64,000 nt of DNA from Gammaproteobacteria bacterium (GTDB lineage Bacteria; Pseudomonadota; Gammaproteobacteria; UBA12402), in contig JASFHH010000002.1 of the NCBI GenBank assembly GCA_050123335.1, forward strand, positions 9,519 through 73,518, in the 5' to 3' direction. The notes under the pieces are model-generated. The model searched no databases and was not told where the DNA came from. It worked only from the letters and a program-made list of their open reading frames with translations. Positions 15,553-56,100 of this stretch are shown one piece after another (positions within the stretch are counted from its first letter, which is position 1; every line of letters starts with the position of its first letter). Made by a program: the position numbers and the translations under genes.

Positions 15553-15647
<95 letters not shown>

Positions 15648-15851: not shown

Positions 15852-15879
15852 TTTATATTACAGAGTAACATAAGCTTTT

Positions 15880-15953
15880 GCGCCCGTAGCTCAGCTGGAT
15901 AGAGTACCTGGCTACGAACCAGGCGGTCGGGAGTTCGAATCTCTCCGGGCGCG
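15880..15953 (+). tRNA. tRNA-Arg (anticodon ACG)
   Basis: 74-nt cloverleaf: acceptor GCGCCCG/CGGGCGC, anticodon loop CUACGAA, T-loop GGGAGTTCGAATCTCTC, discriminator G; CCA is not encoded. Confidence 0.9.
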
Positions 15954-24537: not shown

Positions 24538-24583
24538 TGTTTTTGATTTTAGAATGACTTTGATTTATTAGGAGGATAGAGTT

Positions 24584-25570: not shown

Positions 25571-25609
25571 GCCATATTTCGAGTAACAGAAATGAGATAA
25601 AGGTCACGT

Positions 25610-29439: not shown

Positions 29440-29481
29440 TAATTAGGAATGATTTGTATAGGCAAATTGGGGGTAAATGAA

Positions 29482-30033: not shown

Positions 30034-30141
30034 TAATAAGGATTGAGGGTGGAGGTTCCGGATAAATATTACGCATTTCTCGGGATGTGATTATTAAACA
30101 TGCGTTAAAGGATGTATTAGGATTAAGGGGTTATTTAAGGT

Positions 30142-32392: not shown

Positions 32393-33909
32393 TTGGTGAA
32401 AATTATCCACGGGCAAAAGAAGCAGATATTGCACTTTTAATGGAGGGTTCATATCCTTTTGTTGTTGGTGGTGTTTCACATTGGACGCACCAAATAATAA
32501 ATGCTTTTCCGCAATTTAAATTTGCGGTTATTTTCATTGGTTCTAGTCCAGAAGATTATAAAGAAGGAATGCGTTACCAATTACCTAAAAATGTAGTGCA
32601 TTTTGAAACCCATTATTTATATTCAACCCAAGAAGATTTCATTGATGTTAAAAAACTGCAAAATAAATCGTTAGTGTCGTTTAATTTATTGCAAGATTTT
32701 TTAGCTCAACATAATGGGCAGATTGCAGATAGATTTCACGGGTTGGATTTTCATATTGATGTCGATTCTCATGTTAAATATGAGCATTTCTTTTATTCCA
32801 AACCATCTTGGGATTTTATTGTAAATAATTACACTAAATATTGTACCGACCCATCATTTATTGATTATTTTTGGAATATTATGAATATTCAACGACCATT
32901 ATGGCAGATTGCCTCAATTGTTGAGGATTTTATTAAGGTCAAAATGGTGCATACTGTTTCTACTGGTTATGCTGGTTTTTTTGGGGCGTTGTTGAATTTT
33001 TATCATCATTATCCTTTGGTTTTGACGGAACATGGTATTTATACCAAAGAACGGCGCATTGAATTATTACAAACGAAATTAATTGGGGAAGATGATCAAA
33101 CTCAAAGATTTGCAACAGAAATGGGTTATATTCGCAATTTATGGATACGTTATTTTGATTTGTTAGCGCGTATTTGCTATGAAGTTGCAAATCCAATTAC
33201 TAGTTTATTTACTTTGGCAAGAGATAAGCAAATTGAAGAAGGCGCGCAACAGGAAAAAACGACAATTATTCCTAATGGAATAGATATTGCGAAATTTAGT
33301 AAATTGCGTGCATTGAGAGAAGAAAAAATTCCTTCGATATTATGTTTAATTGGTCGGGTAGTATCAATTAAGGATGTAAAAACGTTTATTCGGGCGATGA
33401 ATGTTGTAGTACAACATATACCAGAGGCACAAGGTTGGATAGCTGGTCCTGTGGACGAAGAGCCAGAATATTTTCAAGAATGTAAGAATTTAGTTACAGT
33501 TTTAGAATTGGAAGATCATGTCAAGTTTTTCCCTGGCAGACAGGATGTAACTAAAATATTTCCGCGGATTGGTTTAATGATGCTAAGTTCTATTAGTGAA
33601 GGAATGCCGTTAGTTCTCTTGGAAGGTTTTGCTTCGGGTGTGCCTGCAGTTGCTACTGATGTGGGTGCGTGTCGCGAATTAATTTTTGGTAGAGATGCGG
33701 AAGATAAAAAACTAGGCGCAGCAGGAGAGATAGTATATATCGCTAATCCACAAGCTTTAGCTGATGCTGCGGTAAGGTTGTTGCAAAATCCTAAGAGTTG
33801 GCAAAATGCACAACATGCAGCGATAGCTAGAGTAGAAAAGTATTTTGATCAACAACAGATGTTTGCAAAATTTAAATCAATATATGAAAAGGTTTTGCAG
33901 GGAGCCTAA
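32389..33909 (+). CDS. pelF: PelF, GT4 family glycosyltransferase
   Basis: GT4 motif EGFASGVPAVATDVGACRELI; ~506 aa. The ATG overlaps the pelE stop (ATGA). Confidence 0.85.
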   Translation: MIGENYPRAKEADIALLMEGSYPFVVGGVSHWTHQIINAFPQFKFAVIFIGSSPEDYKEGMRYQLPKNVVHFETHYLYSTQEDFIDVKKLQNKSLVSFNLLQDFLAQHNGQIADRFHGLDFHIDVDSHVKYEHFFYSKPSWDFIVNNYTKYCTDPSFIDYFWNIMNIQRPLWQIASIVEDFIKVKMVHTVSTGYAGFFGALLNFYHHYPLVLTEHGIYTKERRIELLQTKLIGEDDQTQRFATEMGYIRNLWIRYFDLLARICYEVANPITSLFTLARDKQIEEGAQQEKTTIIPNGIDIAKFSKLRALREEKIPSILCLIGRVVSIKDVKTFIRAMNVVVQHIPEAQGWIAGPVDEEPEYFQECKNLVTVLELEDHVKFFPGRQDVTKIFPRIGLMMLSSISEGMPLVLLEGFASGVPAVATDVGACRELIFGRDAEDKKLGAAGEIVYIANPQALADAAVRLLQNPKSWQNAQHAAIARVEKYFDQQQMFAKFKSIYEKVLQGA

Positions 33910-33912
33910 TTT

Positions 33913-35283
33913 ATGGCAGGTATTGGATTTGAATTACGTAAATTATTGCGTCGAGGCAGCTATTTAAATATCGCGCGTGCGTATGGTTATGCCGGAATTA
34001 TTAGTGCAGGTCCTTGGGTTATTTCTATTTGTGGTATTATTGCTTTAGATTTTTTAAAATATTTTGATATCACACAAGCGAGTATTATTCAACAGTTTCA
34101 GGTTTCTATTACTTATCTTATAGCTTTAAGTTTAATATTCAGCGGATTTACGCAACATAGTTTTACTAGATATGTTGCTGATCGTTTATTCGAAAAGAAG
34201 TTTGATTATGTAGTTCCTAATTTTAATGGGGTATTGTTAGTATTAACAGCTGTGAGTGGTTTATTTGGATTTATTTTAGCTAACGTATTTTTTTTGCAAC
34301 AGGATTTTTATTTTCGTTTATTTATGAGTGGTTCATTTGTTGTGCTATGTAATATTTGGTTTACTACTAATTTACTTTCTGGTTTGAAAAATTATCGTTC
34401 TATATTATTAGCTTTTTTTGTTGGTTATAGTATATCTGTGTATTTAGGTTATCTATTACGTTTTCATGGTTTAGATGGTTTGCTGGGCGGTTTTTTTGTC
34501 GGACAATTTGTTTTATTAGCAGGCATGTTAATAATTTTATATTATTACTATCCATCCAATCGAATCATTGATTTTGATTTTTTGCGTCCAGGAAGAGTTT
34601 TTTTTACTTTGGTTTTTACTAGTTTATTTTACAACTTGGGGATTTGGGTAGATAAATTTATTTTTTGGTATTCTCCTTTAACTAGTCATTCAGTTTTGGG
34701 TCCTTTACATATATCTGTTATTTATGATTTACCGATTTTTCTTGCGTATTTAGCAATTATTCCGGGGATGGCTATTTTTTTGTTCCGCGTAGAAACTAAT
34801 TTTGTAGAATATTATAATTATTATTATGATTCTGTTCGTAATGGCGATACTTTGTTTAATATTATTGGAGCTAGATATCAAATGGCTGATGCGGCACGTC
34901 AAGGTATATTTGATATTATACGAATTCAGGGGATAACTATTTTTACTATATTTATCTTGGGGCCAAAGTTGTTATCGTTTTTACATGTATCAAAACATTA
35001 TATATATTTGCTTAATATAGATATAGTTGGTACGAGTTTGTTAGTTATTTTTTTGGCTTTATTGAATTATATGTTTTATTTAGATCGGCGTGTAAGCGCA
35101 TTAGTTTTAAATGTGTTATTTTTTGTTTTTAATGCGATATTAACTTTGTGGACTATTCATCTTGGAGTTTTTTACTTTGGTTATGGTTTTGTATTAGCTT
35201 TGTTATTAGTTAATGTTATTGCAGTTTTAATATTAAATCATGATTTTGATAATTTAGAATATATTACTTTTATGCGGAAATAG
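33913..35283 (+). CDS. pelG: PelG, polytopic membrane exporter (MATE/PST-like)
   Basis: 456 aa (the same length as PelG), ~12 predicted TM helices. Last gene of the operon. Confidence 0.8.
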   Translation: MAGIGFELRKLLRRGSYLNIARAYGYAGIISAGPWVISICGIIALDFLKYFDITQASIIQQFQVSITYLIALSLIFSGFTQHSFTRYVADRLFEKKFDYVVPNFNGVLLVLTAVSGLFGFILANVFFLQQDFYFRLFMSGSFVVLCNIWFTTNLLSGLKNYRSILLAFFVGYSISVYLGYLLRFHGLDGLLGGFFVGQFVLLAGMLIILYYYYPSNRIIDFDFLRPGRVFFTLVFTSLFYNLGIWVDKFIFWYSPLTSHSVLGPLHISVIYDLPIFLAYLAIIPGMAIFLFRVETNFVEYYNYYYDSVRNGDTLFNIIGARYQMADAARQGIFDIIRIQGITIFTIFILGPKLLSFLHVSKHYIYLLNIDIVGTSLLVIFLALLNYMFYLDRRVSALVLNVLFFVFNAILTLWTIHLGVFYFGYGFVLALLLVNVIAVLILNHDFDNLEYITFMRK

Positions 35284-35486: not shown

Positions 35487-36506
35487 ATGGTAAAAAATAA
35501 ACCAATAGAGAAGCAGGATTGTTATCTACAAATCAAAAATGTTTTAGATGAGGCTAGATCTAAAATTTATAGGCAAATTAACTCGGTTATGGTTCAGGCT
35601 TATTGGAATATTGGAAGAATTATAGTTGAAGAAGAGCAGCAGGGTAAAGCGAAAGCTGGGTATGGTAGCAAATTGCTGGAAAATCTATCAGAAAGGTTAA
35701 CAAAGGATTTTGGTAGGGGGTTCAAGACTAGCAATTTGTGGGATATGCGTAAGTTGTATCTTACTTTTCCAATTCTCCAGGCACTGCCTGGAGAATTGAG
35801 CTGGACGCATTATCGTATCCTACTAAGGGTTGAAGAGGAAAATGCTAGAAATTTCTACCTTAATGAGTGTGCAGAATCTCGCTGGAGTACTAGGGAATTA
35901 GAGCGCCAGATCAATTCTATGCTATTTGAGCGATTGGCTGCAAGCAAAGATAAAGCCAAGGTCAAAGCTTTGGCTGAAAAAGGGCAGATTATTCAGATGC
36001 CAAGTGATGCTATCAAAGATCCGTATATTTTTGAATTTCTTGGTTGGCCAGAGCAGTATACTTTTTCAGAAAGCGATTTAGAAACTGCTTTGATAGATAA
36101 TTTAAAAGGATTTTTATTGGAGTTGGGTAAGGGGTTCAGCTTTGTAGCTAGACAACAGCGCATTACTTTGGAAAATGATCATTTTTATATTGATTTGGTT
36201 TTTTACAATCGGTTGTTGCGGAATTTCGTATTAATAGATTTGAAATTAGGTAAGCTAACACATCAAGATCTTGGTCAAATGCAAATGTATGTGAATTATT
36301 ATGACCGTATTGTTAAATCAAAAGATGAAGATTCTACGGTCGGTATAGTGCTATGCAAAGACAAAAACGAAACGGTAGCAAAATTTACTTTGCCAGAAGA
36401 TAATAAAAATATTTTTGCATCGAAATACAAGCCGTATTTGCCTACTGAAGAAGAATTGATGCGAGAAATTGAAGCAATTTCGGCGAGGTTGGAAACGAAA
36501 AAATAG
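35487..36506 (+). CDS. PDDEXK nuclease-fold protein, DUF1016/YhcG family
   Basis: The N-terminus is YhcG-like (...YWNIGRIIVEEEQQGK...). The C-terminus has a PD-(D/E)xK-like motif ...IDLVFYNRLLRNFVLIDLKLGK. 339 aa. Confidence 0.7.
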   Translation: MVKNKPIEKQDCYLQIKNVLDEARSKIYRQINSVMVQAYWNIGRIIVEEEQQGKAKAGYGSKLLENLSERLTKDFGRGFKTSNLWDMRKLYLTFPILQALPGELSWTHYRILLRVEEENARNFYLNECAESRWSTRELERQINSMLFERLAASKDKAKVKALAEKGQIIQMPSDAIKDPYIFEFLGWPEQYTFSESDLETALIDNLKGFLLELGKGFSFVARQQRITLENDHFYIDLVFYNRLLRNFVLIDLKLGKLTHQDLGQMQMYVNYYDRIVKSKDEDSTVGIVLCKDKNETVAKFTLPEDNKNIFASKYKPYLPTEEELMREIEAISARLETKK

Positions 36507-36661: not shown

Positions 36662-37594
36662 ATGGCAAAGATAAGATTTCGTAAAGAGGCAACAAAAAAG
36701 ATCTTTTCACCAGAGCAGCTAGATCTATTAACTACAATTGCTCCCAGTCGTAATTGGCTGATATTGGTCACAATTGCTGTTTTACTTGTTTTTGTTGTTT
36801 TTTGGGGTTTTTTCGGAGCCATACCTACAACGGTAGATGTTAGAGGGATAGTTATCGATGCTGCTGTGAATGATGTTTATGCTCCTGTTACTGGTTATAA
36901 TCAGTCTTTGAATATAAAGCTTGGTGACCAGGTTCATGCAGGTGAGGAATTGTTGAGAATTATTCCGCCAGATTTATATATCAAATTAGTTGCAGTAAAA
37001 TCTCGCTTGGAAAAACAAAGGAATAACCAGAAATTGCAACAGGAGTTAATAAGTATAAATAAGCAAATTATGCAGCAGGCAATTTATGTTATATCTCCTT
37101 ATACCGGCAGGATAGTGGAATTAGACATACAATCTGGAGAATATGTTGATAAACACCAATTGTTATTACGCATCGAGCGTTTTCAGACAGATGCTGCTGG
37201 TTTGCATGCGATATTATTCGTTTCACCAATCGAAGGTAAACGTATAAAAACGGGAATGAAGGTGCAGCTGGCTCCTTCAACAGTACGTCCTGAGGAGTAT
37301 GGTTATCTTTTGGGAAAAGTCAGCTATGTTTCAAAGTATTCAGTAACATCATTTGATATAGTAAATATTTTGGGAAATAGAGATTTTACCAAAGCATTCT
37401 CAAGAGGTTTAATGCCTTTAGAGGTAAGGGTAAAGCTTATTCCTGATTCAAAAACGCAATCTGGTTACAAATGGTCTTCTTCTAAAGGACCACCGATTCG
37501 GATAGATTCGGGTACTTTTTGTATGGGTAAAGTTATTATTGGTCGAATCAGACCGATAAATCTCGTGCTTCCTGCTTTAAGGGGGGCGTTTTGA
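36662..37594 (+). CDS. HlyD-family membrane fusion protein of an NHLM-type bacteriocin export system
   Basis: N-terminal TM anchor, biotinyl/lipoyl-like beta-hairpin and coiled coil; 310 aa. Lies immediately upstream of two bacteriocin-type ABC transporters. Confidence 0.65.
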   Translation: MAKIRFRKEATKKIFSPEQLDLLTTIAPSRNWLILVTIAVLLVFVVFWGFFGAIPTTVDVRGIVIDAAVNDVYAPVTGYNQSLNIKLGDQVHAGEELLRIIPPDLYIKLVAVKSRLEKQRNNQKLQQELISINKQIMQQAIYVISPYTGRIVELDIQSGEYVDKHQLLLRIERFQTDAAGLHAILFVSPIEGKRIKTGMKVQLAPSTVRPEEYGYLLGKVSYVSKYSVTSFDIVNILGNRDFTKAFSRGLMPLEVRVKLIPDSKTQSGYKWSSSKGPPIRIDSGTFCMGKVIIGRIRPINLVLPALRGAF

Positions 37595-37598
37595 ACGA

Positions 37599-39743
37599 AT
37601 GAGAAGAGTTAAGACTCCAACTGTTCTTCAAATGGAAGCCGTTGAGTGCGGAGCGGCTGCATTAGGAATAATTTTAGCTTATTATGGTAATTTTGTTCCA
37701 TTAGAGAAGCTTAGAATTGAATGCGGGGTTTCAAGAGATGGCAGTAAGGCTTCCAATGTTGTTAAAGTTGCGCGCAAATATGGACTTGATGCCCAGGGAA
37801 TAAATGTAGATCTTGAAGGTTTGGCTAATCTTAAAATGCCAGTTATTCTTTTTTGGGGGTTTGCTCATTTTGTAGTTCTCGAAGGTATAAAAGGCAAAAA
37901 AGTTTATCTTAATGATCCGGCTGCTGGGCCTAGAACAGTTTCCTGGCAAGAATTGGGTGAATATTTTACCGGGATTGCGCTTACATTTGCGCCAACGGAC
38001 AGATTGCAAAAAACAGCAAAATCACGAACTTTATTCAAGGCGATTAAAAATAAATTAATTAATTGTAAACAGTTGTTGCTTTTTATTATTTTAACAGGAT
38101 TTTTTTTAGTGTTGCCTGGTTTGGTAATACCAGCTTATACTAAAATTTTTGTTGATAACATTGTAGTTGCAAAAATGAATAATTGGTTTGCAGCGCTTAT
38201 AGTGGCAATGATTCTTACAGTGTTTGTTTATGGTATTTTAACATGGTTGCAGCAATTTTATTTAACCAAGTTAGATTTAAAGTTAACTATTTCAAATACG
38301 GCTAAGTTTTTGCATCACATGTTGCATCTTCCAATTGAATTTTTTAGTCAAAGATTTGTTGGTGATCTTATTTATCGAATACAACTTAATAAAAATGTAG
38401 CACGACTTTTATCAGGAAATTTAGCTTCAAGTTTGGTTAGTTTAATGATGGTGATTTTCTTTGCGATGTTGATGTTTTATTACGATGTTGTTTTAACAAT
38501 AATTGGTATTGTGAGTACTGTGATAATTTTAATAGCGTTAAAAATAATATACAGAAAACAAATGGATCTTAATCGACGACAAAAAATAGAATTTGGTAAG
38601 ACCATAGGAATAACAATGCGCAGCTTGCAAATTATAGAGACTATAAAATCATCTGGTTTAGAGGGAGATATATTTTCACGTTTGTCAGGACAGATGGCAA
38701 AAATGACAAATGTTCAGCAAGAATCGGGCTCCATTAGTAACGTTTTAAATTCAATTTATCCGTTGGTAACAATGTTAACTACTACAACGGTGTTAATAGT
38801 AGGTGCGATGCGGGTTATCGAGGGTGATTTAAGTATTGGTACGTTAGTGGCTTTTCAATCTCTTATGCTATGTTTTTTAACGCCAGTAGTACGAATTGCG
38901 ACATTATTTCAGGATGTTCAACAGCTACATACCAGCATTGAAAGGTTAGATGACGTTTTTCACTATCCAGTTTGTGGTTGTTTTACTGCAAAAAAAAGCA
39001 AGAAATTTAAGAAAGCAAAATTATCCGGCAACCTTTTGGTTGATAATATAAGTTTTGGTTATAATCCTCTTGAAGAGCCTTTGATTAAAAATTTCAGTTG
39101 TGAATTATCTCCAGGGAAAAAAATAGCTTTAGTTGGAAAAACTGGTTCAGGCAAATCAACTATTAGCAAATTAATTGCTGGTTTATATCAGCCGTGGGAA
39201 GGAAAAATTCTTTTTGATGGAGAGCCGTGTTTTTCTATTCCTAGGAATATTTTTATTAGCTCTTTGGCCATGGTAGATCAGGAAGTGGTGCTTTTTGCTG
39301 GAACAGTGCGTGATAATATAACAATGTGGAATGAAACCATAAGTGATAATAGAATTATTCAAGCTGCAAAAGATGCATGTATACATGAGGATATCATAGC
39401 TAAATTCGGTGGTTATGAAGGGAAAGTTAATGAAAATGGTAATAATTTTAGTGGCGGTCAAAGACAGTTATTAGAAATTGCGCGTGCTTTAGTTGTTGAT
39501 CCTTCCATATTGATTTTAGATGAGGCCACCAGTGCTTTAGATGCTTATACAGAACAAAAGATTCAGGATAATTTAAATCGTGTAGGGTGTGCATGTTTGA
39601 TTGTTGCTCATAGGCTTAGTACTGTAAAATATTGTGATGAAATAATTGTGATTGATAATGGTGAAATCATACAACGTGGCACGCACGAACAATTAGAAAA
39701 TGAAAAAGAAGGGTTGTATTACCAATTAATAAGGATGTATTAA
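37599..39743 (+). CDS. bacteriocin/RiPP export ABC transporter with N-terminal C39 peptidase domain (LanT/SunT-like)
   Basis: N-terminal C39 papain-like domain with the catalytic Cys in ...VLQMEAVECGAAALGIIL... Six TM helices. C-terminal ABC ATPase (GKTGSGKST; LSGGQRQ; ILILDEATSALD). Confidence 0.85.
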   Translation: MRRVKTPTVLQMEAVECGAAALGIILAYYGNFVPLEKLRIECGVSRDGSKASNVVKVARKYGLDAQGINVDLEGLANLKMPVILFWGFAHFVVLEGIKGKKVYLNDPAAGPRTVSWQELGEYFTGIALTFAPTDRLQKTAKSRTLFKAIKNKLINCKQLLLFIILTGFFLVLPGLVIPAYTKIFVDNIVVAKMNNWFAALIVAMILTVFVYGILTWLQQFYLTKLDLKLTISNTAKFLHHMLHLPIEFFSQRFVGDLIYRIQLNKNVARLLSGNLASSLVSLMMVIFFAMLMFYYDVVLTIIGIVSTVIILIALKIIYRKQMDLNRRQKIEFGKTIGITMRSLQIIETIKSSGLEGDIFSRLSGQMAKMTNVQQESGSISNVLNSIYPLVTMLTTTTVLIVGAMRVIEGDLSIGTLVAFQSLMLCFLTPVVRIATLFQDVQQLHTSIERLDDVFHYPVCGCFTAKKSKKFKKAKLSGNLLVDNISFGYNPLEEPLIKNFSCELSPGKKIALVGKTGSGKSTISKLIAGLYQPWEGKILFDGEPCFSIPRNIFISSLAMVDQEVVLFAGTVRDNITMWNETISDNRIIQAAKDACIHEDIIAKFGGYEGKVNENGNNFSGGQRQLLEIARALVVDPSILILDEATSALDAYTEQKIQDNLNRVGCACLIVAHRLSTVKYCDEIIVIDNGEIIQRGTHEQLENEKEGLYYQLIRMY

Positions 39744-39748
39744 ATACG

Positions 39749-42640
39749 ATGAATTATTTGCGTAGCTTAATCAAACTTTGTCATTTATTAATTTTAAGAT
39801 CATACGCTGATATTGATATAAATTCTACAAACAAGTTTTGGTTGGTTCGATCAGGTGCCATAGATGTTTTTTTTATTCAGAAGAATGATCAAGATGAAAT
39901 AATATCAAGAAGGCACATTTTTCGCGCAAATTCTGGCGATGTAATTTTTAGTGGGACATTACAAACAGACAAATCAAATGTTTCATTAGTTGCTGCAGGA
40001 TTACCTGGAAGTAAGATTTGGGAATGTGATGTTGATGCTGTGCTGGAATTGGCGATTCATTATGATCAACAACATAAACTGGTTAAAATAATAAATCGGT
40101 GGTTAACAAAATTATTCGCTGGTGTTGAAAAAGAAAAAGAGCGGGGTGATTGTCAGATCATAGAAAAAAAACAAGGGAAATTAATGCCAGGAGCATATAT
40201 TTCTGCTGATAAAAAAGCTCCTGTTTGGTTACAACTTGATATAACGAATATTACTATTAAAGGGCTGAAAGTTGAAACAGATTCTTTGATACCGCTTGTA
40301 AATACTAATTGGATAGAAATAGAACAAGATTGTAATTTTACAACTTATACTACTCAAGAATTAATTTCACAAAATAAATTTAAAGTGATATTACAGAATT
40401 TTTATGGGTTATTGCTTGATAGTTTAACGCAAGAGAACAAAGAGAAAGAAAAAAATGATTTGGATATTTTGCACCAACAAGTATTTTTTAAAAAAACTAA
40501 TTTTTTACGATCTCTTGGTATACTAAAAAATGTTTTGTCATTTAGAGCAAAAGATAGAATGTTTATTGTTGATCAAGAATCTTCATTATATGCTGCTTGT
40601 TGTGTTGTGGCAAAATCACAGGGCATTGAGGTTATTAGGAATGAATTATATCAAAAACAAAAATCATCTGGTACGGTTGATGAGATTGGTAGGTTGTCTA
40701 ATTTTCCGGTGCGAAAGGTTAATTTAACTCCAGGATGGTCTAAAAAAGATATTGGTTCTTTGTTGGTGTTTGATAAGTTGGGACATCCGCTGGCTCTATT
40801 GCAATCATCTGCCACCAGTTATGAATTATATGACCCGGTTACTGGGTTGTCCCGCGTAGTTACAGCTGAAGTTGAGGAAGCTATTGATCAAACAGCATTT
40901 GTTTTTTATCAGCCATTGCCTTCAGAACAAATTGATGGAAAAAAAATATTGCGTTTTGGTTTCGCTGGTTTGGGTAAGAGTTTTATTTCTATTGCATTAT
41001 TGGGAATAGGTGGTGGCCTGATAAGTTTATTAACACCTTTAGCTACTCAGGTTGTTTTTGATAGCATTATTCCTTCCGCAACTTATAGTTGGCTAATTCA
41101 TCTTGGTATTATATTGTGTTTTGCAGTGTTAAATATCGCTGTCTTTAATTTTGTAAACAATCTTTCTTTGTTAAGAATAGAGGGGAAATTTAATGTAAAA
41201 ACTCAAACCGCATTATGGTATAGGCTTTTAAATTTACCTGTAAATTTCTGTCGTAAATTTACCGCTGGTAATTTAACAACAAGAGTTATGGCTATAAATT
41301 CAATACGGCAACAGCTTTCTGGTGTTAGTTCGAATATTATTATAGGAGCAATTTTTTCAAGCTTAAATTTTTTGTTATTGTTCTACTATAGTTCTTCTAT
41401 GGCTTTAATTGCCTTGTTAATCTCAGTTGTGTTAGTAATTTTTCAGATTGTTTTGGGATACGTATTATATAAATATAATTTTGTTATACAATCTATAGAG
41501 GGAAAAATTTTTGGTATTTTAAATCAATTTATTGGTGGCATTATAAAATTGCGCTTAACTAATACTGAAGATAAAGCTTTTGCTATATGGTCGGATAAAT
41601 TTAGTAATCAGCAGCGATTGTTTGGTTTATCTTTGTTGCTTAATAATTTTTTAAATACAATTTACGCAATTTTTCCTTTGTTAGCTGCGATAACGATTTT
41701 TTCCTGGTTTTTTTTCTTCAGTTATAAGCAATTAACTACTGGTGAATTTTTAGCTTTTAATGTTGCTTTTTTGAGTTTTCAGAACGCTATTCTGCGGGTT
41801 GGTTTGGTTCTTCCTGTTATTATTTCTGCTATACCTCTATTTAAACGTACCAAACCGATATTAGATAGTTTACCAGAGATTAATGCTAGCAGACATTTTC
41901 CAGGAAGTTTACGTGGGTCAATTGAAGTGAGAAACGTTAGTTTTCGTTATAATGCGAATGGACCTGATGCGTTGACAGATATTTCACTGACTATTCAACC
42001 TAAAGAATTTGTTGCGATTGTGGGAGAATCAGGCAGTGGTAAGTCAACTTTGTTAAGATTGTTGTTGGGGTTTGAGCGACCCAATTTAGGAGATATATAT
42101 TACGATAACAAAGAATTGGCGACTTTGAATTGTCGTGAGGTACGTCGCCAAATAGGAGTAGTATTACAGAATGGTCAATTAATGGCAGGAACTATCTTTG
42201 ATAATATTGCTGGGGCTGCAAATATTACTTTAGACGATGCAAAAGAGGCTATAAGTCTTGCAGGTCTTAAGGAAGATATTGAGCAAATGCCGATGGGCAT
42301 GCATACTTTTGTGGGGGTGGGAGGATCGTCTCTTTCTGCAGGTCAGCGGCAACGCTTATTGATTGCGCAAGCTTTAGCAAAAAAACCAAAAATTCTTATG
42401 TTTGACGAAGCTACCAGTGCTTTGGATAATAAAACTCAGGCGCAAATACATTCCACTTTAAAAGGTCTTGATGTAACCAGGATGGTTATTGCGCATCGTT
42501 TAAGTACTATTATTGATGCAGATCGTATTTACGTTTTGCATCAAGGCAGAATTGTTCAAGTTGGAACTTATCAGCAATTATCTCAAGCGGAAGGTTTTTT
42601 TAAAAAACTTATTACAAAACAACTTCTGCAAAACAACTGA
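39749..42640 (+). CDS. second ABC transporter (permease+ATPase) with a ~330-aa N-terminal extension (possible cNMP-binding-like domain)
   Basis: Walker A GESGSGKST; signature LSAGQRQ; Walker B LMFDEATSALD. TM domain. 963 aa. Paired with the C39 transporter, as in NHLM/prochlorosin-type export systems. Confidence 0.8.
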   Translation: MNYLRSLIKLCHLLILRSYADIDINSTNKFWLVRSGAIDVFFIQKNDQDEIISRRHIFRANSGDVIFSGTLQTDKSNVSLVAAGLPGSKIWECDVDAVLELAIHYDQQHKLVKIINRWLTKLFAGVEKEKERGDCQIIEKKQGKLMPGAYISADKKAPVWLQLDITNITIKGLKVETDSLIPLVNTNWIEIEQDCNFTTYTTQELISQNKFKVILQNFYGLLLDSLTQENKEKEKNDLDILHQQVFFKKTNFLRSLGILKNVLSFRAKDRMFIVDQESSLYAACCVVAKSQGIEVIRNELYQKQKSSGTVDEIGRLSNFPVRKVNLTPGWSKKDIGSLLVFDKLGHPLALLQSSATSYELYDPVTGLSRVVTAEVEEAIDQTAFVFYQPLPSEQIDGKKILRFGFAGLGKSFISIALLGIGGGLISLLTPLATQVVFDSIIPSATYSWLIHLGIILCFAVLNIAVFNFVNNLSLLRIEGKFNVKTQTALWYRLLNLPVNFCRKFTAGNLTTRVMAINSIRQQLSGVSSNIIIGAIFSSLNFLLLFYYSSSMALIALLISVVLVIFQIVLGYVLYKYNFVIQSIEGKIFGILNQFIGGIIKLRLTNTEDKAFAIWSDKFSNQQRLFGLSLLLNNFLNTIYAIFPLLAAITIFSWFFFFSYKQLTTGEFLAFNVAFLSFQNAILRVGLVLPVIISAIPLFKRTKPILDSLPEINASRHFPGSLRGSIEVRNVSFRYNANGPDALTDISLTIQPKEFVAIVGESGSGKSTLLRLLLGFERPNLGDIYYDNKELATLNCREVRRQIGVVLQNGQLMAGTIFDNIAGAANITLDDAKEAISLAGLKEDIEQMPMGMHTFVGVGGSSLSAGQRQRLLIAQALAKKPKILMFDEATSALDNKTQAQIHSTLKGLDVTRMVIAHRLSTIIDADRIYVLHQGRIVQVGTYQQLSQAEGFFKKLITKQLLQNN

Positions 42641-42691
42641 AATTGTATTAAATTTGTCCGCAGAAGTTATCTTGTAAAAAATTAAGTTATA

Positions 42692-43003
42692 CTAGCATCC
42701 ATAGCATGTCAAAGTGAATTGAAGGTTACCAGCGGCAAGCATAGCTAATTCCTCATCACTTAATTTTTCAACCTTTGCTCGTTTTTCAGTAGGGATATGT
42801 GGAAGAACTATGGTTATTTCATCTTTTTTTTCATCGATTACATTGATTCTCATGTTTTGTAAATGTTCTAATTTATCCTTATCGAGGGTTTCTTTTGCTA
42901 TAGCTAATATAGCTTCTTTTGGATTGTTATGTAATTGTTTTTTAAATTCTGGGTCACGTAAACATTTGATGATTATTTTATCTTTAAGGTTTATATTGGT
43001 CAT
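42692..43003 (-). CDS. lanthipeptide precursor with NHLP (nitrile-hydratase-leader-peptide) type leader; predicted core NLQFTLTCYGC
   Basis: The leader (...LSDEELAMLAAG) is ~70% identical to the neighbouring precursor, and the C-terminal core is short, Cys/Thr-containing and divergent. The start is taken at the ATG (MTNINL) preceded by GGAGG; the track ORF begins 5 codons earlier. Confidence 0.7.
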   Translation of the reverse strand: MTNINLKDKIIIKCLRDPEFKKQLHNNPKEAILAIAKETLDKDKLEHLQNMRINVIDEKKDEITIVLPHIPTEKRAKVEKLSDEELAMLAAGNLQFTLTCYGC

Positions 43004-43138
43004 GCTATCTTCCTCCATTAAATGATATTTAAGATGTCCAAATTAATAGTACCATTATTTCAATATAAAATGCAATTACTTAAACAAAAGCAAGGATAAT
43101 GATAAAATTTATTATAAAAATATTTTTTATAGTAGTAA

Positions 43139-43471
43139 CTAACAATTGCAGGTTTGCGTGATTGTTGAACATATACCGCAAGTGATTATTGTGTTTGCGC
43201 CTGCAATGACAGCTAATTCATCATCGCTTAATTTTTGAATTTTTGCTTGTTGTTCATCAGGAATGTACGGAAGAACTATTGTCATTTCATTTCGTTTTTC
43301 ATGGATTATGTTGAAGTTCATATTTTGTATACGTTCTAGTTCATTCTTGTCGAGTTCTGCTTTTGCTAAAGACAATATAGCTTTTTTGGGGTTTTCTTGT
43401 AATTGTTTGTTGAATTCTGGATCACGGATGCTTTTGATGATGATTTGTTCTCTAAGATTTATATCAGACAT
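43139..43471 (-). CDS. lanthipeptide precursor with NHLP type leader; predicted core NTIITCGICSTITQTCNC
   Basis: The leader ends ...LSDDELAVIAGA. The 18-aa core has 4 Cys and 7 Ser/Thr. The start is taken at the ATG (MSDINL) preceded by GGAGG. Confidence 0.7.
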   Translation of the reverse strand: MSDINLREQIIIKSIRDPEFNKQLQENPKKAILSLAKAELDKNELERIQNMNFNIIHEKRNEMTIVLPYIPDEQQAKIQKLSDDELAVIAGANTIITCGICSTITQTCNC

Positions 43472-43540
43472 ATTGTTTTCCTCCATACAGTTTTATAAAA
43501 ACACCTATTAATAATACCACTTATCTAATGGGATACGCAA

Positions 43541-46500
43541 TTACTCAAATAGAAGTATTGAAGGTAAGTTATCAGGAGAAGTCATTCGTAGAAGTTCATA
43601 TCCTACCCCGGTAATGCCTCTAAATAATCCCAGTATTGGAGTATCGGTTGGAAAATTATGGATAAAGCTGAAACCGCCTTTATGTTTTGCTTTGGTTATT
43701 ATGGATAGAGCATAACGCGTGGCTTCATTATGTAAGTCATCTATTCCTAATCTATGTGTGGCTTCAGAAATGAAATTAATACGGCCAAAATTACCACAGC
43801 ATAAGTGATCTAAGATGCGATTATTATGTTGCAAAGTTGCATTTAGTGCGTGGTCGATATCTTTTCTAATGCTTATTGTGTCATAGATAGGCAACCCTCC
43901 CAAACGACCCAAGCCGATACCTACAGCGCCATGGCACCAGGCATTTTGGTATTGTGGGGTTTTGCATGATGTTCTTAAGTCAGGCCAGTTATTTGCGTCA
44001 TGATGAAATATACTGGTTTCGTACATGATTCCTTCTTTGGCTGCTTGTAGATATTCATTTTTTTGCGTTGCCTCAAATAATTTTAATAATGCATAAGCAA
44101 TACCAGCCGCGCCATGTCCAAATCCAGCCAATGGTCTGTGGCTATTTATAGTGATCCATGTTTTATGTCCGTTTTTGGTAATTTTATTTTTTAGTAAATG
44201 TTCACCACACGCAATTGCTTTTTGTAAAAATTTTTGTTCACTCGTTATTTTGTATAAATTTAACAAGCTAAGAATAGCTCCAGCTGAACCAGCTATAATA
44301 TCCAAAATTTGATCTTTGTTGATTAAATCATCATTAATCAACGATGCAACTATTTTTGCATCTTCTAATAAACTTGGTTCTTTGATTAAATTATTTATAC
44401 AGACTAACGCATATATAATGGAGCCTAATCCTGTTGTTCCGCCTATTCCCCAGGTTGATCCTAAAAATTTAAATTCATCTGTTTTTAAAAAAGTTCTTAA
44501 CGGTTGTAATCCGGCCAAAGCAAGTTTACGATAGTTATCATTGCAAAATATTTTACTTGCTGCAGCTAGAAATAAAGCAATGCCGGTTGCTCCATTATAA
44601 AGGTTGAAATCAGCTTGTTGTAAATAATAATCTTCTCTCATTGGGTCAAAATCAATTTGTAACCATGTAGCTGAATTATCGTGGTATATTGCATGCATGG
44701 TAATAATTTCGGTAATTTTAAGTACTTCATTTTTGATGATATCAGAAGCTTTTTTGGTGCCAAATATTTTTGGTAAGCTGGAAGATTTTTTTGGTTGCTG
44801 TGTGCTTAACTCTTTAGCATATCGTGCACACAGAGAATATTTAATAAGCTTTGATTGAAAATCGAGATCTTCTTTAGACAAATGTTGGATTTTATTTGTT
44901 ACATTGTTGTAACCAAGGCGCGTAAAAAAATCTGGTTTTTTATTGCTGGTGCTAAAAGTAAATTTAGGAATATCTAAAATATCCATCGCTTTATGCTCAG
45001 GCAAAATTAATTGCCAAACAAGAGGTTTTTTGTTGTTATACAATAATGGTTTAGTTAATATGTCTAAAGCGATATTTCGTTTAATCCCATTTTGCAAAAA
45101 TTCTGCTTGTTGGGAAAATTGTAATAATAAGGCATATATTTTGGTTGATCTGACCACCCAACGAATTTCCTGATTTAAAAATAGTTTAAATGGGCTGTTT
45201 GCGCTTAACAATAATTTTTTATTTTTTAAGAAGAAATCATACATCGTTGTAAAGCCATTTATTATTTGAGTAATGTAATTTTGTGGGGTTTGTATTTGCT
45301 TGGCTAATTTTGGAAAATTTGATTGTAAAACATGAGACTTATTTATCGTTATATATTTGTAAGACATGTCGTCACAGTTAATTCGTGTCCATCTATAGTT
45401 TTTAATGGTGGTATTAAATAATATGTCGCCAGCCAAACCGCTAACATCCAAGCCATATTTTTCAAAGTTATTATTACCAAAAGGTAATAAGCCTAAGCGT
45501 AATACTGATTTATCGACAATGGTTTGGGATGTTGAAGTTGACGAGGCATCAAATGGTTTTACAGTTGGTTGCAGCAAGGTTTCTAAATCAACAATTACCG
45601 GAAAACTGGCGTTTGCGATGATATTTTCAAAATGAAAATCTGTTCCTTCTAACAAATATAACACACAAATAAGTTTACCTACCCGGTTGTAATAATCTTT
45701 TATGCCTTTGGTGTTTTTACATTCCAAATATTCTACAAACTCAACCCATCCATAATCGCTTTTATTGATTATTTTAAGAGTTTTAAAAGATTGCATAAAT
45801 TTTTCTTGCTGGTTAATCCATTTTAAAAAGTCAAAATATGCAGCATCAATTCCCAGATTTCTTGGTTTATATACAACTTTGGTGCCGCAAGCGAATTCAA
45901 CAATGATAATTTTTTTTCCTTTGTTGTGAGCATCGGAAATGTCTGTTTTAATGTTTTTGATTTTGAAAGAGTTTTTATTTATTCCAAAAACTTTGATTAA
46001 TTCACGCTTATCTTTTTCGACACGCTGCAAAAATTCTTTTATATTATCTAACCAAAACGTTGTAGTTGTTCCGATTAGTTTTGCTAAAACCGCATAGTCT
46101 TCTAAAAAACTTGTCAATTGATTTGTTAACATTGTATTAACAAATTCATGGTATTGTTTATTCGTGCATTTTTTTTCTAAAAGTGAGGTAAAAGGATCTC
46201 GTGACCAGTTTATGTAACGAAAAACCAAAAATTCTTTATGCAAAGCAAAAACTGAAATAAAGCATAATTTATTAAGCAGCGATCGTATTAATTTGTGAGC
46301 AGCTCTTTTATGCAGCAATTTCATTTGTTCTGGAGCTTCTTTGTACAGCCTGTCTGAAGCAATTTGAACAAAAGGTAATAAAATGTCCTCAAAGGGCAGT
46401 GGTGATTTTTTTTTAATCCAGGGATATTTATATTTAGTATTTTCAGTTGCAAATAGTTCTGCGATTTGGACTCCATTTTGTAATAGTTTCATCCATGGGT

Positions 46501-46759
46501 GAATGTTGTCATTATACGTTTGCGATGTTGCAGTTGTTAATGCAGCGTTTACTTGTTTTAGACTAAAGCCATCCCAACTGAATCTTTTTATTAATGTATC
46601 CGGATCATTATTGGCAACGGTTTTTTGCCATTGTTGAAAGAACCTGTTTTTTGATAAATCATCATGTGTTTGTTTGGTATTATTACAATTCTCTATTTTA
46701 TCGTAGAAAGAACGGGATTTTGACGAGATTTTTTGCAATGTTTCGTTTGATAATTTCAT
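43541..46759 (-). CDS. lanM: class II lanthipeptide synthetase LanM (bifunctional dehydratase/cyclase)
   Basis: 1072 aa. The C-terminal LanC-like cyclase motifs are all present: GFGHGAAGIAYAL, NAWCHGAVGIGL, HLCCGNFG. A large N-terminal dehydratase domain precedes them. Lies adjacent to the precursors. Confidence 0.85.
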   Translation of the reverse strand: MKLSNETLQKISSKSRSFYDKIENCNNTKQTHDDLSKNRFFQQWQKTVANNDPDTLIKRFSWDGFSLKQVNAALTTATSQTYNDNIHPWMKLLQNGVQIAELFATENTKYKYPWIKKKSPLPFEDILLPFVQIASDRLYKEAPEQMKLLHKRAAHKLIRSLLNKLCFISVFALHKEFLVFRYINWSRDPFTSLLEKKCTNKQYHEFVNTMLTNQLTSFLEDYAVLAKLIGTTTTFWLDNIKEFLQRVEKDKRELIKVFGINKNSFKIKNIKTDISDAHNKGKKIIIVEFACGTKVVYKPRNLGIDAAYFDFLKWINQQEKFMQSFKTLKIINKSDYGWVEFVEYLECKNTKGIKDYYNRVGKLICVLYLLEGTDFHFENIIANASFPVIVDLETLLQPTVKPFDASSTSTSQTIVDKSVLRLGLLPFGNNNFEKYGLDVSGLAGDILFNTTIKNYRWTRINCDDMSYKYITINKSHVLQSNFPKLAKQIQTPQNYITQIINGFTTMYDFFLKNKKLLLSANSPFKLFLNQEIRWVVRSTKIYALLLQFSQQAEFLQNGIKRNIALDILTKPLLYNNKKPLVWQLILPEHKAMDILDIPKFTFSTSNKKPDFFTRLGYNNVTNKIQHLSKEDLDFQSKLIKYSLCARYAKELSTQQPKKSSSLPKIFGTKKASDIIKNEVLKITEIITMHAIYHDNSATWLQIDFDPMREDYYLQQADFNLYNGATGIALFLAAASKIFCNDNYRKLALAGLQPLRTFLKTDEFKFLGSTWGIGGTTGLGSIIYALVCINNLIKEPSLLEDAKIVASLINDDLINKDQILDIIAGSAGAILSLLNLYKITSEQKFLQKAIACGEHLLKNKITKNGHKTWITINSHRPLAGFGHGAAGIAYALLKLFEATQKNEYLQAAKEGIMYETSIFHHDANNWPDLRTSCKTPQYQNAWCHGAVGIGLGRLGGLPIYDTISIRKDIDHALNATLQHNNRILDHLCCGNFGRINFISEATHRLGIDDLHNEATRYALSIITKAKHKGGFSFIHNFPTDTPILGLFRGITGVGYELLRMTSPDNLPSILLFE

Positions 46760-46973: not shown

Positions 46974-47711
46974 ATGGACAATATAAAAGAACTATATTCA
47001 AAGTTTGATGGAAATTTTGCAGCAATTCCGTCGGATAAAAATCGTGGCAAACCAAAACCTGCAATACAAAAGCCTTATCCTGATAATGCACAGTTAATTG
47101 ATTTGCCACAAGATGATTTTGCCACTCACAATGTTTCTTTGTTTGATGCGATTAAAAATCGTAAAACTCATCGAAAATTTAGTGAAGCATCTTTAACTAT
47201 AAATGAATTATCATTTTTACTTTGGGCTACACAAGGTATTCGCAGCGAAAAAAATCCACAATACCGTAGTGTTGCTTCAGCTGGCGCGTGTCATCCTTTT
47301 GAAACTTATCTAGCAATTTATCATATTACGGATTTGTCAGCGGGTTTGTATCGATATTTGCCTATCGAACATAAGCTTTATTTTATTTCATCAGATGATG
47401 AAATCGTTAATAAAATTAAATTAGTTATTCCTAGCGAAAATCCAGTATACAAAGGCATCGATACAAGTGCAGTTACTTTTTTGTGGACAGCGTTGCCATA
47501 TCGTGCTATTTGGAAATATCCTGGTATGGTGGTGAAACTGATCGCACAAGACTCTGGTCATTTGTGCCAAAATTTATATTTAGCTGCGGAGGCAATTAAT
47601 TCTGGAGTTTGTGCTGTAGATGCCTATTTGCAGGATAAAGCAGATGGTTTTTTGCAAATAGATAGCAAGGAGGAGTTTGTGGTTTATATGTCGGTGGTTG
47701 GAAAGCTTTAG
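46974..47711 (+). CDS. SagB-type dehydrogenase / nitroreductase-family protein
   Basis: Nitroreductase fold signature (...RKTHRKF...LSFLLWATQGIR...ASAGACHPFETYL...). 245 aa. Divergent from lanM. Confidence 0.55.
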   Translation: MDNIKELYSKFDGNFAAIPSDKNRGKPKPAIQKPYPDNAQLIDLPQDDFATHNVSLFDAIKNRKTHRKFSEASLTINELSFLLWATQGIRSEKNPQYRSVASAGACHPFETYLAIYHITDLSAGLYRYLPIEHKLYFISSDDEIVNKIKLVIPSENPVYKGIDTSAVTFLWTALPYRAIWKYPGMVVKLIAQDSGHLCQNLYLAAEAINSGVCAVDAYLQDKADGFLQIDSKEEFVVYMSVVGKL

Positions 47712-53133: not shown

Positions 53134-56100
53134 TTAATGTTGATACATATTACGTTTCTGGCCATTATTGGTTTTTTTGGGGTCATTATTATTTTTATTA
53201 TCTTTGCTAAAGAACTTTAATCCCTTAGAATTTTTTTGTGCCTTTTTTATGTTGATATAAATATTTTGAGGGGTTAAACCATCTTTGTTTTGCTGTGTAT
53301 TTAATCCAGAGAATTTTTTTGCCAATTCCAAGTAATACTTACTACTAACCTTTGCTAAAACATGTAATATATTATTATCTGAAGAATTTTTCCATTTCGG
53401 GTCTGCATATTTTATGCAAAGTGTCACCAAATCCCAACGGGAATTTTTAATCATAGATTCGAGCAAAGAATCACTACTATTTGGCGAAACGCTATTTAAT
53501 GCTTCAATAATAAATTTTTTTTCTACCTTTTTGAACAAGTCATCAAGCGCTGTTACTATGTTTTTTTGTTTTTGCAAAACAAAAATCATCCAAATAAGTG
53601 AAATAATATCATTATTATCCTGCATTTTTGTGAGTCTATTGTTAATAAGCTCATCTTTTAACATAATGGCTATTTCAGATTTAGGTTCAAAAGCTATTTT
53701 TTTAAACACGATCATGCCTGTATTGTAGTTTGACCAAAAATCGATATAAGGCAACATAAGTTCAAGAAAATTATTTTTTAAAGTGGGCGGTATATTTTCA
53801 TCATTACCAGTAAGCAACATCATTAAAGGAGTCATAGCTAGATTAAACTTTTTGGCGTCATCTTCTTTTTTGTTTTCTGTCGGAATTTTGATCTCAGAAA
53901 TACCCTGATTGATATAATGAAATAGTTGATCTTTTGGAACATTTTTCAGCAAACATTCAAACAAAGCAAGATTACCACGATAAATTACTTTATGAAATAT
54001 ACTATAGCCTTTTAAATCCGTATCAAATAACTCATTCAATGGTATATTTTTGCATGCAAATTTAATAATATCTTCAACCTCATTATTCCAAGGTTTATTA
54101 ATAAGGTGTGTAAAAACATTTCCATAATCATATTGAATTAAACAAATCTTCCCTAAGCAATTGTATATAATTTTAGCCGCAGCAAAATTGTTCATTAACA
54201 AAGCTTTTTCAAAAATATTAACCTGCATATTATTTGGTTGCTCAAAGTTGAAAAAATCCTCAAGCAATTTGCTTTTTTCGTGTTTTTTTACATTTTCCAA
54301 TAATAACTTGAGCTTATTATTCAATTTAGGACGTTCTATACAAAAATCAATTATTTGCATAAGATCATATGAAATAATCTGGTCTTGAAACTTGTTTGCT
54401 TTAAATAAATCAATAATGTGGTCAAGATGAAGGTTGATCATTTTTTGTGTGGCATTAGGGTGAAATGCATACTGATAAGCCTTCAACCCAAGCATATTGA
54501 TTGTATATTTAAGCTTATGCTCATCAAACAGTTTTTTAACAAAAGAAACATTCCCATCCATTGTAGCAAGATATAGACCTGTTGCATTTATCGGCCATTC
54601 TTTGTTCTTTTTATCTTTATTTTTGCTTTTTCGTTTCTTTGAATCTATGATTTTTTTCTCTTTTTTCTTTTTGAATTTTTTGTTGTTTGGTTTAAAAATC
54701 ATCTGTTGCAGTTTTGAGTTATTTGCAAGTATTTTTTTAAGCTTGTTAACGAAATTCTCAAGATGTGTTGGGAAAAGCAAAAGACCCCTAACTAAGCATT
54801 CAGAATTCTTATATCCAAAGATATCAAATTTACTTTCATGAGGTAATTCTTTCTGGAATATTTTTTTAACTTCCTTATTTTTATATAGATAGAAACAAAT
54901 TTTTGTAAGAGAATGCTCGTTAAAACCATATTTTTTTAAAATTTGTTTTGACTTGTTAATTGACTCTCCTCGTGACAATATTTTTATTTCAGGTGGACGA
55001 ATAATTTTGGGTTTGTTATTGAAAGTCTTGGCGCTTTCTTCTAATTTTGCACGTTTTATTTTTTCAAGCAATTGCTTTTTTAGCAGCCTTTTTTTTAAAG
55101 AAAATTGTTTTTTCTTCTTTTTCCTTTTGGATTTTTTAGATTTCTTGTTGATTTTAATCTCTTGTATAAGATTTAATTCTTTTATTAAAGTTTTAACATC
55201 GTTTTTTATTGCATCTGTCTGTATAGATTTAAGCTCAAAAAGTATTTCTTTTGTGTTATTATCTAATTTCTTAAGATGAGCACATAGGTTTTCTATGTAG
55301 ATATTTTGAATAGTCCTTTTAGATAATGATTGTAGGGTTTCTTTTGCTTTTTTGAAATCTTTTAAAGCAATATAATGATATATTTTATACGGATGGTTGT
55401 GCGTGAACAAGTTTTTGTCGTGCAAAACTTTAATGACTAATTTGCTTGCTCTATATTGAAATGCTCTGTTTATTATTTTTTTTATATGAGAATGTGTGGT
55501 TAAGTGTTTGTGGTGTATTAATAATGTCTTTAACAATTTATAATTGTCCACTTTGAATGCAATATCTAAGAGATTATTTTTCATTGAAGTTGTGCTGAAC
55601 AATTTCAGCGGTAAACGATAAGTTACTTTATCAATAGTGCGTTTATTATCAATTTGCAAACAAATTTCTTTTGATGATGTTAATTTCACATCGATTTTCA
55701 TATCATGAGTTTTAAATAGATAATGTGATTTACCATATGCAAGATGTCCAATTGAAGCAATAATAAATTGTATGGATTTGTTTTTAGGTTGGATTTCTCT
55801 AAGGGTTTGCAAAAAATCTGATGTGGGTAAGGTTGAGCCATTACCTAAAAGATTGATGGCAGTATTGGTTTGGCTGTAAAGCAATGCATAATGTAACGGT
55901 GTATCACATGTTATAGAAAATTTGTTTATTTTGTATGTTTTTTTTAATTTTTCGCAAATTGTATCTGGATGTAGACTAATGACTTCAGCGATGTTTTCTG
56001 ATAACTTGAAATGGATGGAGTTAATTAGGGGTGTGCACTTTTGTTTTGATGAGTTTGTTTTGTTAATATTATACAATTTTTTGATATAATTATAGTTTAT

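Follow-up and report, generated by a model that had tools for sequence, protein, structure and literature searches.

A probable class II lanthipeptide gene cluster with NHLP-type leaders in an uncultured gammaproteobacterium

Overview of the cluster

A 64,000-nucleotide stretch of a gammaproteobacterial contig (GenBank assembly GCA_050123335.1, contig JASFHH010000002.1, positions 9,519 to 73,518; referred to here as the window, in whose numbering all positions are given) very probably harbours a gene cluster for class II lanthipeptides with leaders of the NHLP (nitrile-hydratase-like leader peptide) type, extending from about 36662 to 46759. The cluster contains one gene for a class II lanthionine synthetase (LanM), two tandem genes for precursor peptides (designated A and B) and, convergent with the precursor genes, a trio of genes for an NHLP-type exporter (Table 1). 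The two precursors had been picked out in an earlier note, made from the sequence alone, as substrates of a single promiscuous LanM, and both open reading frames (ORFs) are present on the minus strand as that note described. Clusters of this type are already known. This one stands apart in its host lineage, in leaders of a subfamily that curated cutoffs miss, in its predicted AG/GA cleavage motif and in cores that are short and modular. It leaves the current understanding of lanthipeptide biosynthesis unchanged, while widening the NHLP/LanM lanthipeptides by one divergent subfamily of leaders and by an unusual host.

Table 1. Positions (window numbering) of the features discussed in the text; aa, amino acids; ABC, ATP-binding cassette; FMN, flavin mononucleotide
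Feature	Position	Strand	Details
HlyD-like NHLP bacteriocin secretion adaptor	36662..37594	+	TIGR03794, 254 bits (cutoff 156)
NHLP export ABC transporter with N-terminal C39 double-glycine peptidase	37599..39743	+	TIGR03796, 981 bits (cutoff 853); PF03412, E = 3.5e-35
Second NHLP export ABC transporter	39749..42640	+	963 aa; no recognisable peptidase; TIGR03797, 808 bits (cutoff 709)
Hairpin, 21-bp stem	42612..42677	.	Between convergent genes (precursor A stop 42692, second ABC transporter stop 42640); -26.9 kcal/mol
Precursor A	42692..43003	-	103 aa counted from second ATG; ORF from first ATG 42692..43018, 108 aa
Precursor A core	42695-42727	-	11 aa, NLQFTLTCYGC
Precursor A leader	42728-43003	-	Residues 1-92, ending ...LSDEELAMLAAG
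GGAGG Shine-Dalgarno sequence of precursor A	43012..43016	-	Ends 8 nt before ATG 43001-43003
Precursor B	43139..43471	-	110 aa counted from second ATG; ORF from first ATG 43139..43486, 115 aa
Precursor B core	43142-43195	-	18 aa, NTIITCGICSTITQTCNC
Precursor B leader	43196-43471	-	Residues 1-92, ending ...LSDDELAVIAGA
GGAGG Shine-Dalgarno sequence of precursor B	43480..43484	-	Inside upstream in-frame ATG; 8 nt before ATG 43469-43471
LanM, class II lanthionine synthetase	43541..46759	-	1072 aa; DUF4135 dehydratase and LanC-like cyclase; TIGR03897 871 bits, PF13575, PF05147
Stand-alone SagB/ThcOx-type FMN dehydrogenase	46974..47711	+	TIGR03605, 122 bits; divergent from lanM

Two precursor genes from an old duplication

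Precursors A and B are clearly homologous (BLASTP E = 3e-45), and their relationship is also apparent without reference to translation: a repeat finder applied to a 12-kb region reported a single long repeat there, of 300 nt (42712-43011 versus 43180-43479, 74% identity). No third copy was found in the 64-kb window by tblastn. Precursor B is identical to the NCBI protein P0001 ('hypothetical protein PVI75_00855') and precursor A corresponds to a 103-aa gene call in the Logan assembly.

The earlier note had described a shared start-codon pattern and this is exact, with ATGGAGGAAGATAGCATG in A and ATGGAGGAAAACAATATG in B; both starts read ATGGAGGAA-N6-ATG. It had also proposed that the GGAGG at the first ATG acts as the Shine-Dalgarno sequence for the second. 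This proposal is well supported by the spacing of the GGAGG, which ends 8 nt before the second ATG (no purine-rich stretch is seen 5' of the first), by the choice of the second ATG by two independent gene callers, those of NCBI (110 aa for B) and Logan (103 aa for A), and by the relatives in the family, which start at the equivalent position. When counted from this likely true start, the leaders are each 92 aa in length, slightly shorter than the ~95 aa first suggested. Their identity was also overestimated at ~70%: at the protein level it is 60% (55 of 92 residues), falling to 57% over the whole proteins, and at the DNA level 75.6%.

Comparison of the two leaders gives dS of 0.77, dN of 0.22 and dN/dS of 0.29 (synonymous and nonsynonymous divergence and their ratio), with identity highest at second codon positions, then first, then third. 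On the strength of these values the leaders are the products of an old duplication that has been kept under purifying selection. The earlier note had named a recent duplication with a frameshifted core as the finding that would undo its interpretation, and here the divergence between the copies came out against such an origin: the duplication is not recent, the remaining reading frames of both core regions hold stop codons, and a two-codon indel is all that in-frame alignment of the cores requires. A frameshifted-core origin can be rejected, and the original interpretation stands. Two plus-strand ORFs opposite the precursors (42810-43025, 71 aa, and 43263-43511, 82 aa) overlap the repeated leader segments; in all likelihood they are not genes but mirror-image artefacts of the leader duplication.

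Cleavage sites and cores

Similarity between leaders stops at ...ELAMLAAG in A and ...ELAVIAGA in B. Cleavage had been predicted after AG in A and GA in B, and these positions are in the correct register for a C39 peptidase: such enzymes are directed by hydrophobic residues at positions -4, -7 and -12 (PMC12537861), which are occupied by Leu, Leu and Leu in A and by Ile, Leu and Leu in B. AG and AAG endings are common in the leader subfamily, whose other members end in GG, AG, AAG or GA. The predicted mature peptides would be NLQFTLTCYGC (A) and NTIITCGICSTITQTCNC (B).

Core A contains two threonines and two cysteines, core B five threonines, one serine and four cysteines. The four cysteines of B agree with the earlier count but its seven serine and threonine residues are in fact six. 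More significantly, the cores do not 'differ completely', as had been claimed. NLQFT(LT)CYGC of A can be aligned in frame with NTIITCGIC of B with a single two-codon indel, giving identity at four of nine residues and 16 of 27 nucleotides, and the DNA repeat extends 16 nt into both cores. Nor can two related cores demonstrate that the cores are 'hypervariable', with four of nine core positions identical as against 55 of 92 in the leader.

All three cysteine pairs lie within copies of one module, T-x(1-2)-T-C-x(1-3)-C, present as TLTCYGC in A and as TIITCGIC and TQTCNC in B, and the chief difference between the cores is the extra module of B. A six-frame translation of the window (128,000 residues) contains four occurrences of the pattern, three of them in the two cores; this count is indicative only, the pattern having been defined post hoc. 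The module is also found in the cores of two relatives (P0122 and P0157). Both cores terminate in cysteine, and a C-terminal cysteine is common in the precursor family.

What rings might such a module form? Rings D and E of nisin are two intertwined methyllanthionine rings, spanning residues 23-26 and 25-28. The underlying T-x-T-C-x-C layout (TATCHC, nisin residues 23-28, confirmed against the nisin sequence) is reproduced with exact spacing by TQTCNC at residues 13-18 of B. By analogy, each module is predicted to give two overlapping rings, so that A would carry one such set (Thr5-Cys8 and Thr7-Cys11) and B two (Thr2-Cys6 with Thr5-Cys9, and Thr13-Cys16 with Thr15-Cys18). Nisin and subtilin are class I lanthipeptides made by LanB and LanC, in contrast to the LanM system here, and their leaders and the remainder of their sequences are different too. 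The likeness offers a clue to ring topology and has no bearing on the family to which the peptides belong. The cores, short (11 and 18 aa) and modular, lend themselves to heterologous production and to experiments on how a LanM of the present type forms overlapping rings.

The leaders belong to the NHLP group

The best family for both precursors is the NHLP model TIGR03793 (E = 1.4e-11 and 44.1 bits for A; E = 1.1e-8 and 34.8 bits for B), and A alone additionally matches the Pfam NHase_alpha family (6e-4). With the Nif11 model TIGR03798, A reaches no more than E = 0.0089 and 16.3 bits (cutoff 32.3), and the model is not listed for B. A HMMER search with the two leaders as query against 1.84 billion representative proteins returned 63 proteins at E <= 1e-3, most of them about 90-125 aa long. 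In most of the 63 the conserved region stops at GG, AG, AAG or GA and is followed by an unrelated and often Cys-rich tail. At E <= 1e-10 there are only three entries outside the query's own cluster, of which two, P0122 and P0123, are relatives of precursor size.

A profile built from 22 sequences (A, B and 20 relatives) was compared with the proteins of the PDB. This profile matches nitrile hydratase alpha chains at 3e-20 to 1e-12 and the solved NHLP leaders 8tb1 and 9cjx (DprE2) at 1.6e-13 and 1.1e-9, respectively, whereas the solved Nif11 leader 9zn4 is matched at 0.05 only. Judged by these profile matches to nitrile hydratase alpha and to NHLP structures, set against the weak match to Nif11, the leaders are classed as NHLP-type and not Nif11-type. 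In an AlphaFold 2 model of precursor B, the predicted local distance difference test (pLDDT) score averages 87-97 in 10-residue blocks across residues 11-90 and is below 50 in the core. A Foldseek comparison with the PDB produced no significant match, a word-indexed protein search returned the query itself as sole match, and a metagenome scan with the leader alignment identified four distant loci.

The closest relative of the leader is P0122 (41-46% identical; loci L004, 104-421, and L005, 772-1089), whose core, TITCNSICICR, contains a TxTCxxxC module. P0122, from another low-GC organism (36-40%), is an orphan precursor: its gene is flanked by obg on one side and a relB/yafQ toxin-antitoxin pair on the other, and a gene for a 1079-aa LanM lies about 10 kb away. 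A further protein found in the representative-protein search, P0124 (406 aa), is matched by the NHLP leader profile in four separate places and may be a protein of tandem NHLP-like domains.

LanM, the exporter and a proposed pathway

That the precursors are served by a single LanM, as the earlier note supposed, is borne out by the arrangement of the genes: the only LanM gene in the window lies 54 nt upstream of that for B, on the same strand, and encodes a full-length and catalytically intact enzyme. Alignment to CylM and LicM2 places D276, H278, K298, D374, H376, N379, D391, R533 and T539 of the present LanM at the positions of CylM D252, H254, K274, D347, H349, N352, D364, R506 and T512, residues that have been shown to be essential in CylM (PMC4550811). 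The zinc ligands of the cyclase domain are C942, C987 and C988. Here, the sequence HLCCGNFG aligns with the LCHG of LicM2 and CylM, so that in the second zinc motif the CHG of those enzymes is replaced by CCG (C987-C988). The CCG motif is found in nearly all of the ~80 closest LanM homologues. A CCG motif, giving a Cys-Cys-Cys zinc site, defines the ProcM-like LanM group and is linked to substrate tolerance (PMC10027976, PMC11251773), and its presence bears out the view that this LanM is of the promiscuous type.

The LanM is ~37% identical to its nearest relatives, the named ones being mainly cyanobacterial. The closest named homologue, from Coleofasciculus (37% identical, CCG), is encoded next to an NHase_alpha-like precursor. 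The locus in question (L095, Coleofasciculus sp., JBKHUP010000027.1, 4854-19130) encodes two LanMs, a 178-aa NHase_alpha-like precursor, three Nif11 precursors and a tryptophan halogenase, and resembles the brominated-lanthipeptide clusters described previously (PMC11791876). A LanM search of a genome-contig collection gave no match.

The three exporter genes are convergent with the precursor genes. The C39 domain of the first ABC transporter matches LahT150 (6mpz) with E = 1.4e-44, with C17, H90 and D106 falling within aligned conserved motifs, and should remove the leader during export. In the second ABC transporter the first ~277 residues (window 39749-40580) precede the match to TIGR03797, and the first 284 aa have no Pfam match. 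A transporter of 895 aa at another locus (L002) aligns with it from about residue 215 onward. Between the convergent genes lies a hairpin that is far more stable than expected by chance (z = -5.05, with 0 of 200 shuffled sequences folding as well) and that is likely to be a bidirectional terminator for the lanM-B-A transcript. No stable structure was found between B and A.

In the pathway that we envisage, lanM and the genes for precursors B and A would probably form one minus-strand transcript ending at the 42612-42677 hairpin, and each precursor would be translated from its second ATG by means of the embedded GGAGG. The 92-aa leader would fold as a compact helical domain resembling nitrile hydratase alpha and dock on LanM, which would phosphorylate threonine and serine residues in the core and then eliminate the phosphate to yield dehydro-residues. 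The cyclase domain, with its Cys3-zinc site, would add cysteine thiols to these to form (methyl)lanthionine rings, up to two in A and up to four in B. The C39 domain would cut after AG in A and GA in B, and the two ABC transporters and the HlyD adaptor would carry the mature, presumably bioactive, 11- and 18-residue peptides over the Gram-negative envelope.

Comparison with known lanthipeptide systems

The combination of NHLP precursor, LanM and TIGR03794/03796/03797 exporter was described by Haft, Basu and Mitchell (2010) for Nostoc sp. PCC 7120, N. punctiforme and Azospirillum sp. B510 (PMC2887384), and LanM action on NHLP precursors has been demonstrated for OspM (on OspA) and DprM (on DprE1-7), including on conserved leaders with divergent cores (PMC12537861). 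Like these NHLP-lanthipeptide clusters, the present cluster has a leader of ~90 aa homologous to nitrile hydratase alpha, hydrophobic residues at -4, -7 and -12, a cleavage site of the GG type, a LanM gene adjoining the precursor genes, several precursors with conserved leaders and differing cores, and a three-gene exporter. It differs from them in its host, an uncultured low-GC (~33%) gammaproteobacterium, in leaders that miss the TIGR03793 cutoff, in having AG and GA in place of GG at the cleavage site and in its very short cores built of TxTCxxC modules. Unlike the dpr cluster, it has no radical S-adenosylmethionine (SAM) enzyme, halogenase or other tailoring genes. Nor is this the first gammaproteobacterium in which class II lanthipeptide genes have been described: Wenzhouxiangella sp. 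AB-CW3 carries a class II lanA-lanM pair adjoining type I secretion genes, but there the transport genes are described as hlyBD and a separate periplasmic peptidase has been suggested for leader removal (PMC7691419).

Several systems with two precursors of similar leader but different core and a single LanM are known, including cytolysin, carnolysin, bicereucin and roseocin (PMC10027976). One possibility, which we consider unlikely, is that A and B similarly form a two-component lanthipeptide, active only when the peptides act together, and are not the independent products of a diversity-generating system. The presence of exactly two tandem precursors with conserved leaders, cores of unequal length and a single LanM, which is the roseocin and cytolysin layout, would fit this. 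Two-component lanthipeptides are made either by two LanMs (haloduracin or lacticin 3147 type) or by one LanM of the CHG type (cytolysin or roseocin type), the latter known from Firmicutes or Actinobacteria (PMC10027976), whereas the window has one LanM only and this is of the CCG type. Furthermore, the cores of A and B resemble a single and a doubled version of one module more than they do two distinct designs. The alpha-peptides of two-component lanthipeptides carry a mersacidin-like lipid II-binding ring motif that includes a glutamate; there is no glutamate in either core, making such a motif impossible here. The question of joint activity concerns function and not biosynthesis, and a two-component product would be compatible with the NHLP-type class II cluster proposed above.

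The earlier note had likened the precursors to prochlorosins, and this comparison holds in part. As in the ProcA/ProcM and SyncA/SyncM systems, a CCG LanM is paired with long leaders and with more than one core per enzyme, and a C39/ABC transporter is available for leader removal. Prochlorosin leaders are of the Nif11 type, whereas those of A and B are of the NHLP type, and the host is not a marine picocyanobacterium; since the leaders differ in type, the comparison is one of analogy and not of membership, and A and B are not prochlorosins in the strict sense. Prochlorosin genomes encode 29-79 precursors, which for ProcM are dispersed over the genome (PMC10027976), and here two are seen in the 64-kb window, both next to lanM. 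That A and B are merely the cis-encoded part of such a library, with further precursors bearing the same leader scattered across the genome and processed by one LanM, strikes us as doubtful enough to be given little weight. The CCG motif is the type associated with high substrate tolerance (PMC10027976), and the orphan status of P0122, encoded amid housekeeping genes some distance from a LanM gene in a low-GC organism, would suit such an arrangement, but there is no further copy of the leader in the 64-kb window and, among the 1.84 billion representative proteins, strong similarity outside the query's own cluster is limited to the three entries noted above.

The SagB-like gene and the limits of the cluster

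On the far side of lanM, 214 nt away and divergent from it, is a gene for a dehydrogenase of the SagB/ThcOx family. Stand-alone homologues of this ~250-aa protein number in the thousands across bacteria and archaea, and the closest (60-76% identical) are found in four loci, none of which has a LanM or precursors. One of these loci, a metagenomic contig (L093), is informative about the limits of the cluster. In the window, the cluster is flanked by a gene for a YhcG-type PD-(D/E)XK nuclease (35487-36506) and by the SagB-like gene. In the metagenomic contig, the orthologues of these genes (YhcG, 7245-8249, 70% identical; SagB-like, 10001-10738, 60%) are only ~2 kb apart. The presence of the cluster between the same two genes in the window suggests that the 10-kb cluster is an insertion with bounds at about 36662 and 46759. 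No convincing direct or inverted repeats marking an insertion were found flanking the cluster within the 12-kb region, and the cluster shows no shift in GC content relative to its surroundings.

Could the precursors also, or instead, be modified by a non-lanthionine route, with the SagB-type dehydrogenase acting on the Cys/Thr-rich cores to give a hybrid product? The proximity of the gene to lanM, the cysteine that ends both cores and the use of NHLP precursors by thiazole/oxazole systems in other bacteria (PMC2887384) all point in this direction. Yet a C-terminal cysteine is common in the precursor family, and no docking protein was found in the window, nor any YcaO cyclodehydratase, as a thiazole/oxazole-modified microcin (TOMM) system would be expected to have, among its annotated ORFs of >= 120 aa. 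The closest homologues of the dehydrogenase occur in loci lacking LanM and precursors, and the gene order in L093 makes it look as though the lanthipeptide genes were inserted beside it. A hybrid route is very unlikely in our estimation. Considered as a candidate member of the cluster, the SagB-like gene was set aside on the basis of its comparative context and the failure to find a cyclodehydratase, and it is probably not part of the cluster.

The suggestion that the genes are a decaying remnant, or that the small ORFs are not precursors of ribosomally synthesised and modified peptides at all, would sit comfortably with the 'hypothetical' annotation of B and the sub-cutoff leaders but can be dismissed as highly improbable given a leader dN/dS of 0.29 after long divergence (dS 0.77) and a LanM, C39 peptidase and transporters that are all of full length with intact catalytic residues.

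A number of points count against the assignment of these genes to a class II lanthipeptide cluster with the products proposed above. Both leaders score under the curated TIGR03793 cutoff of 50.9 bits and precursor B is annotated as a hypothetical protein by NCBI, a label that fits with the sub-cutoff scores. As a site for C39 peptidases, AG at positions -2 and -1 is less common than GG. The pattern in the cores was drawn up only after inspecting these sequences, and the proposed ring topology leans on analogy with nisin. Scans for consensus promoters and terminators gave no more sites than shuffled sequence, and the dehydration and cyclisation of the cores are deduced from the genes present. 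The first of these points has a wider implication: with both leaders missed by the curated models and precursor B labelled 'hypothetical' in the public record, routine annotation is likely to under-count the subfamily.

Chromosomal setting and host

NCBI records the source as a gammaproteobacterial metagenome-assembled genome. The window is chromosomal, carrying priA, recA and alaS, and has a GC content of about 33%. The matches listed for RecA are 72-83% identical and are nearly all scattered over the Gamma- and Betaproteobacteria, making the placement of RecA uninformative below class level. The window also encodes a 1724-aa ankyrin-repeat protein (53134-58308), an ORF with a weak ankyrin match (62675-63940; E = 0.0019, under the Pfam cutoff) and an RCC1-repeat protein (4688-5932). 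The presence of ankyrin- and RCC1-repeat proteins hints at a Legionella-like, host-associated lifestyle. Leucine-rich repeat and, faintly, ankyrin proteins are also encoded at L094, the locus of a close SagB homologue.

These strands can be drawn together into a more ambitious picture, in which a Legionella-like, host-associated gammaproteobacterium would have acquired the cluster by insertion between yhcG and the SagB-like gene, with the promiscuous CCG LanM making A and B as one- and two-module versions of a nisin-D/E-like double ring and the peptides either acting together or being tailored by a recruited SagB-type flavoenzyme. We regard this composite as a long shot. Were a one- and two-module double ring made by an acquired cluster to prove correct, it would represent a new lanthipeptide scaffold in a lineage not known for such products.

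Two further features of the window deserve brief mention. Just upstream of the cluster, on the plus strand, is a complete pel exopolysaccharide operon (21754-35283) comprising two GH114 PelA-like genes, a PelB tetratricopeptide repeat (TPR)/beta-barrel gene and genes for PelD, the PelF glycosyltransferase and PelG. A search of Rfam identified two tRNA genes only in the window, far from the cluster; these adjoin a Bro-N domain gene, the features together covering 15553-15953 and 15991-16845, and a prophage or integrated element may have its edge at this site.

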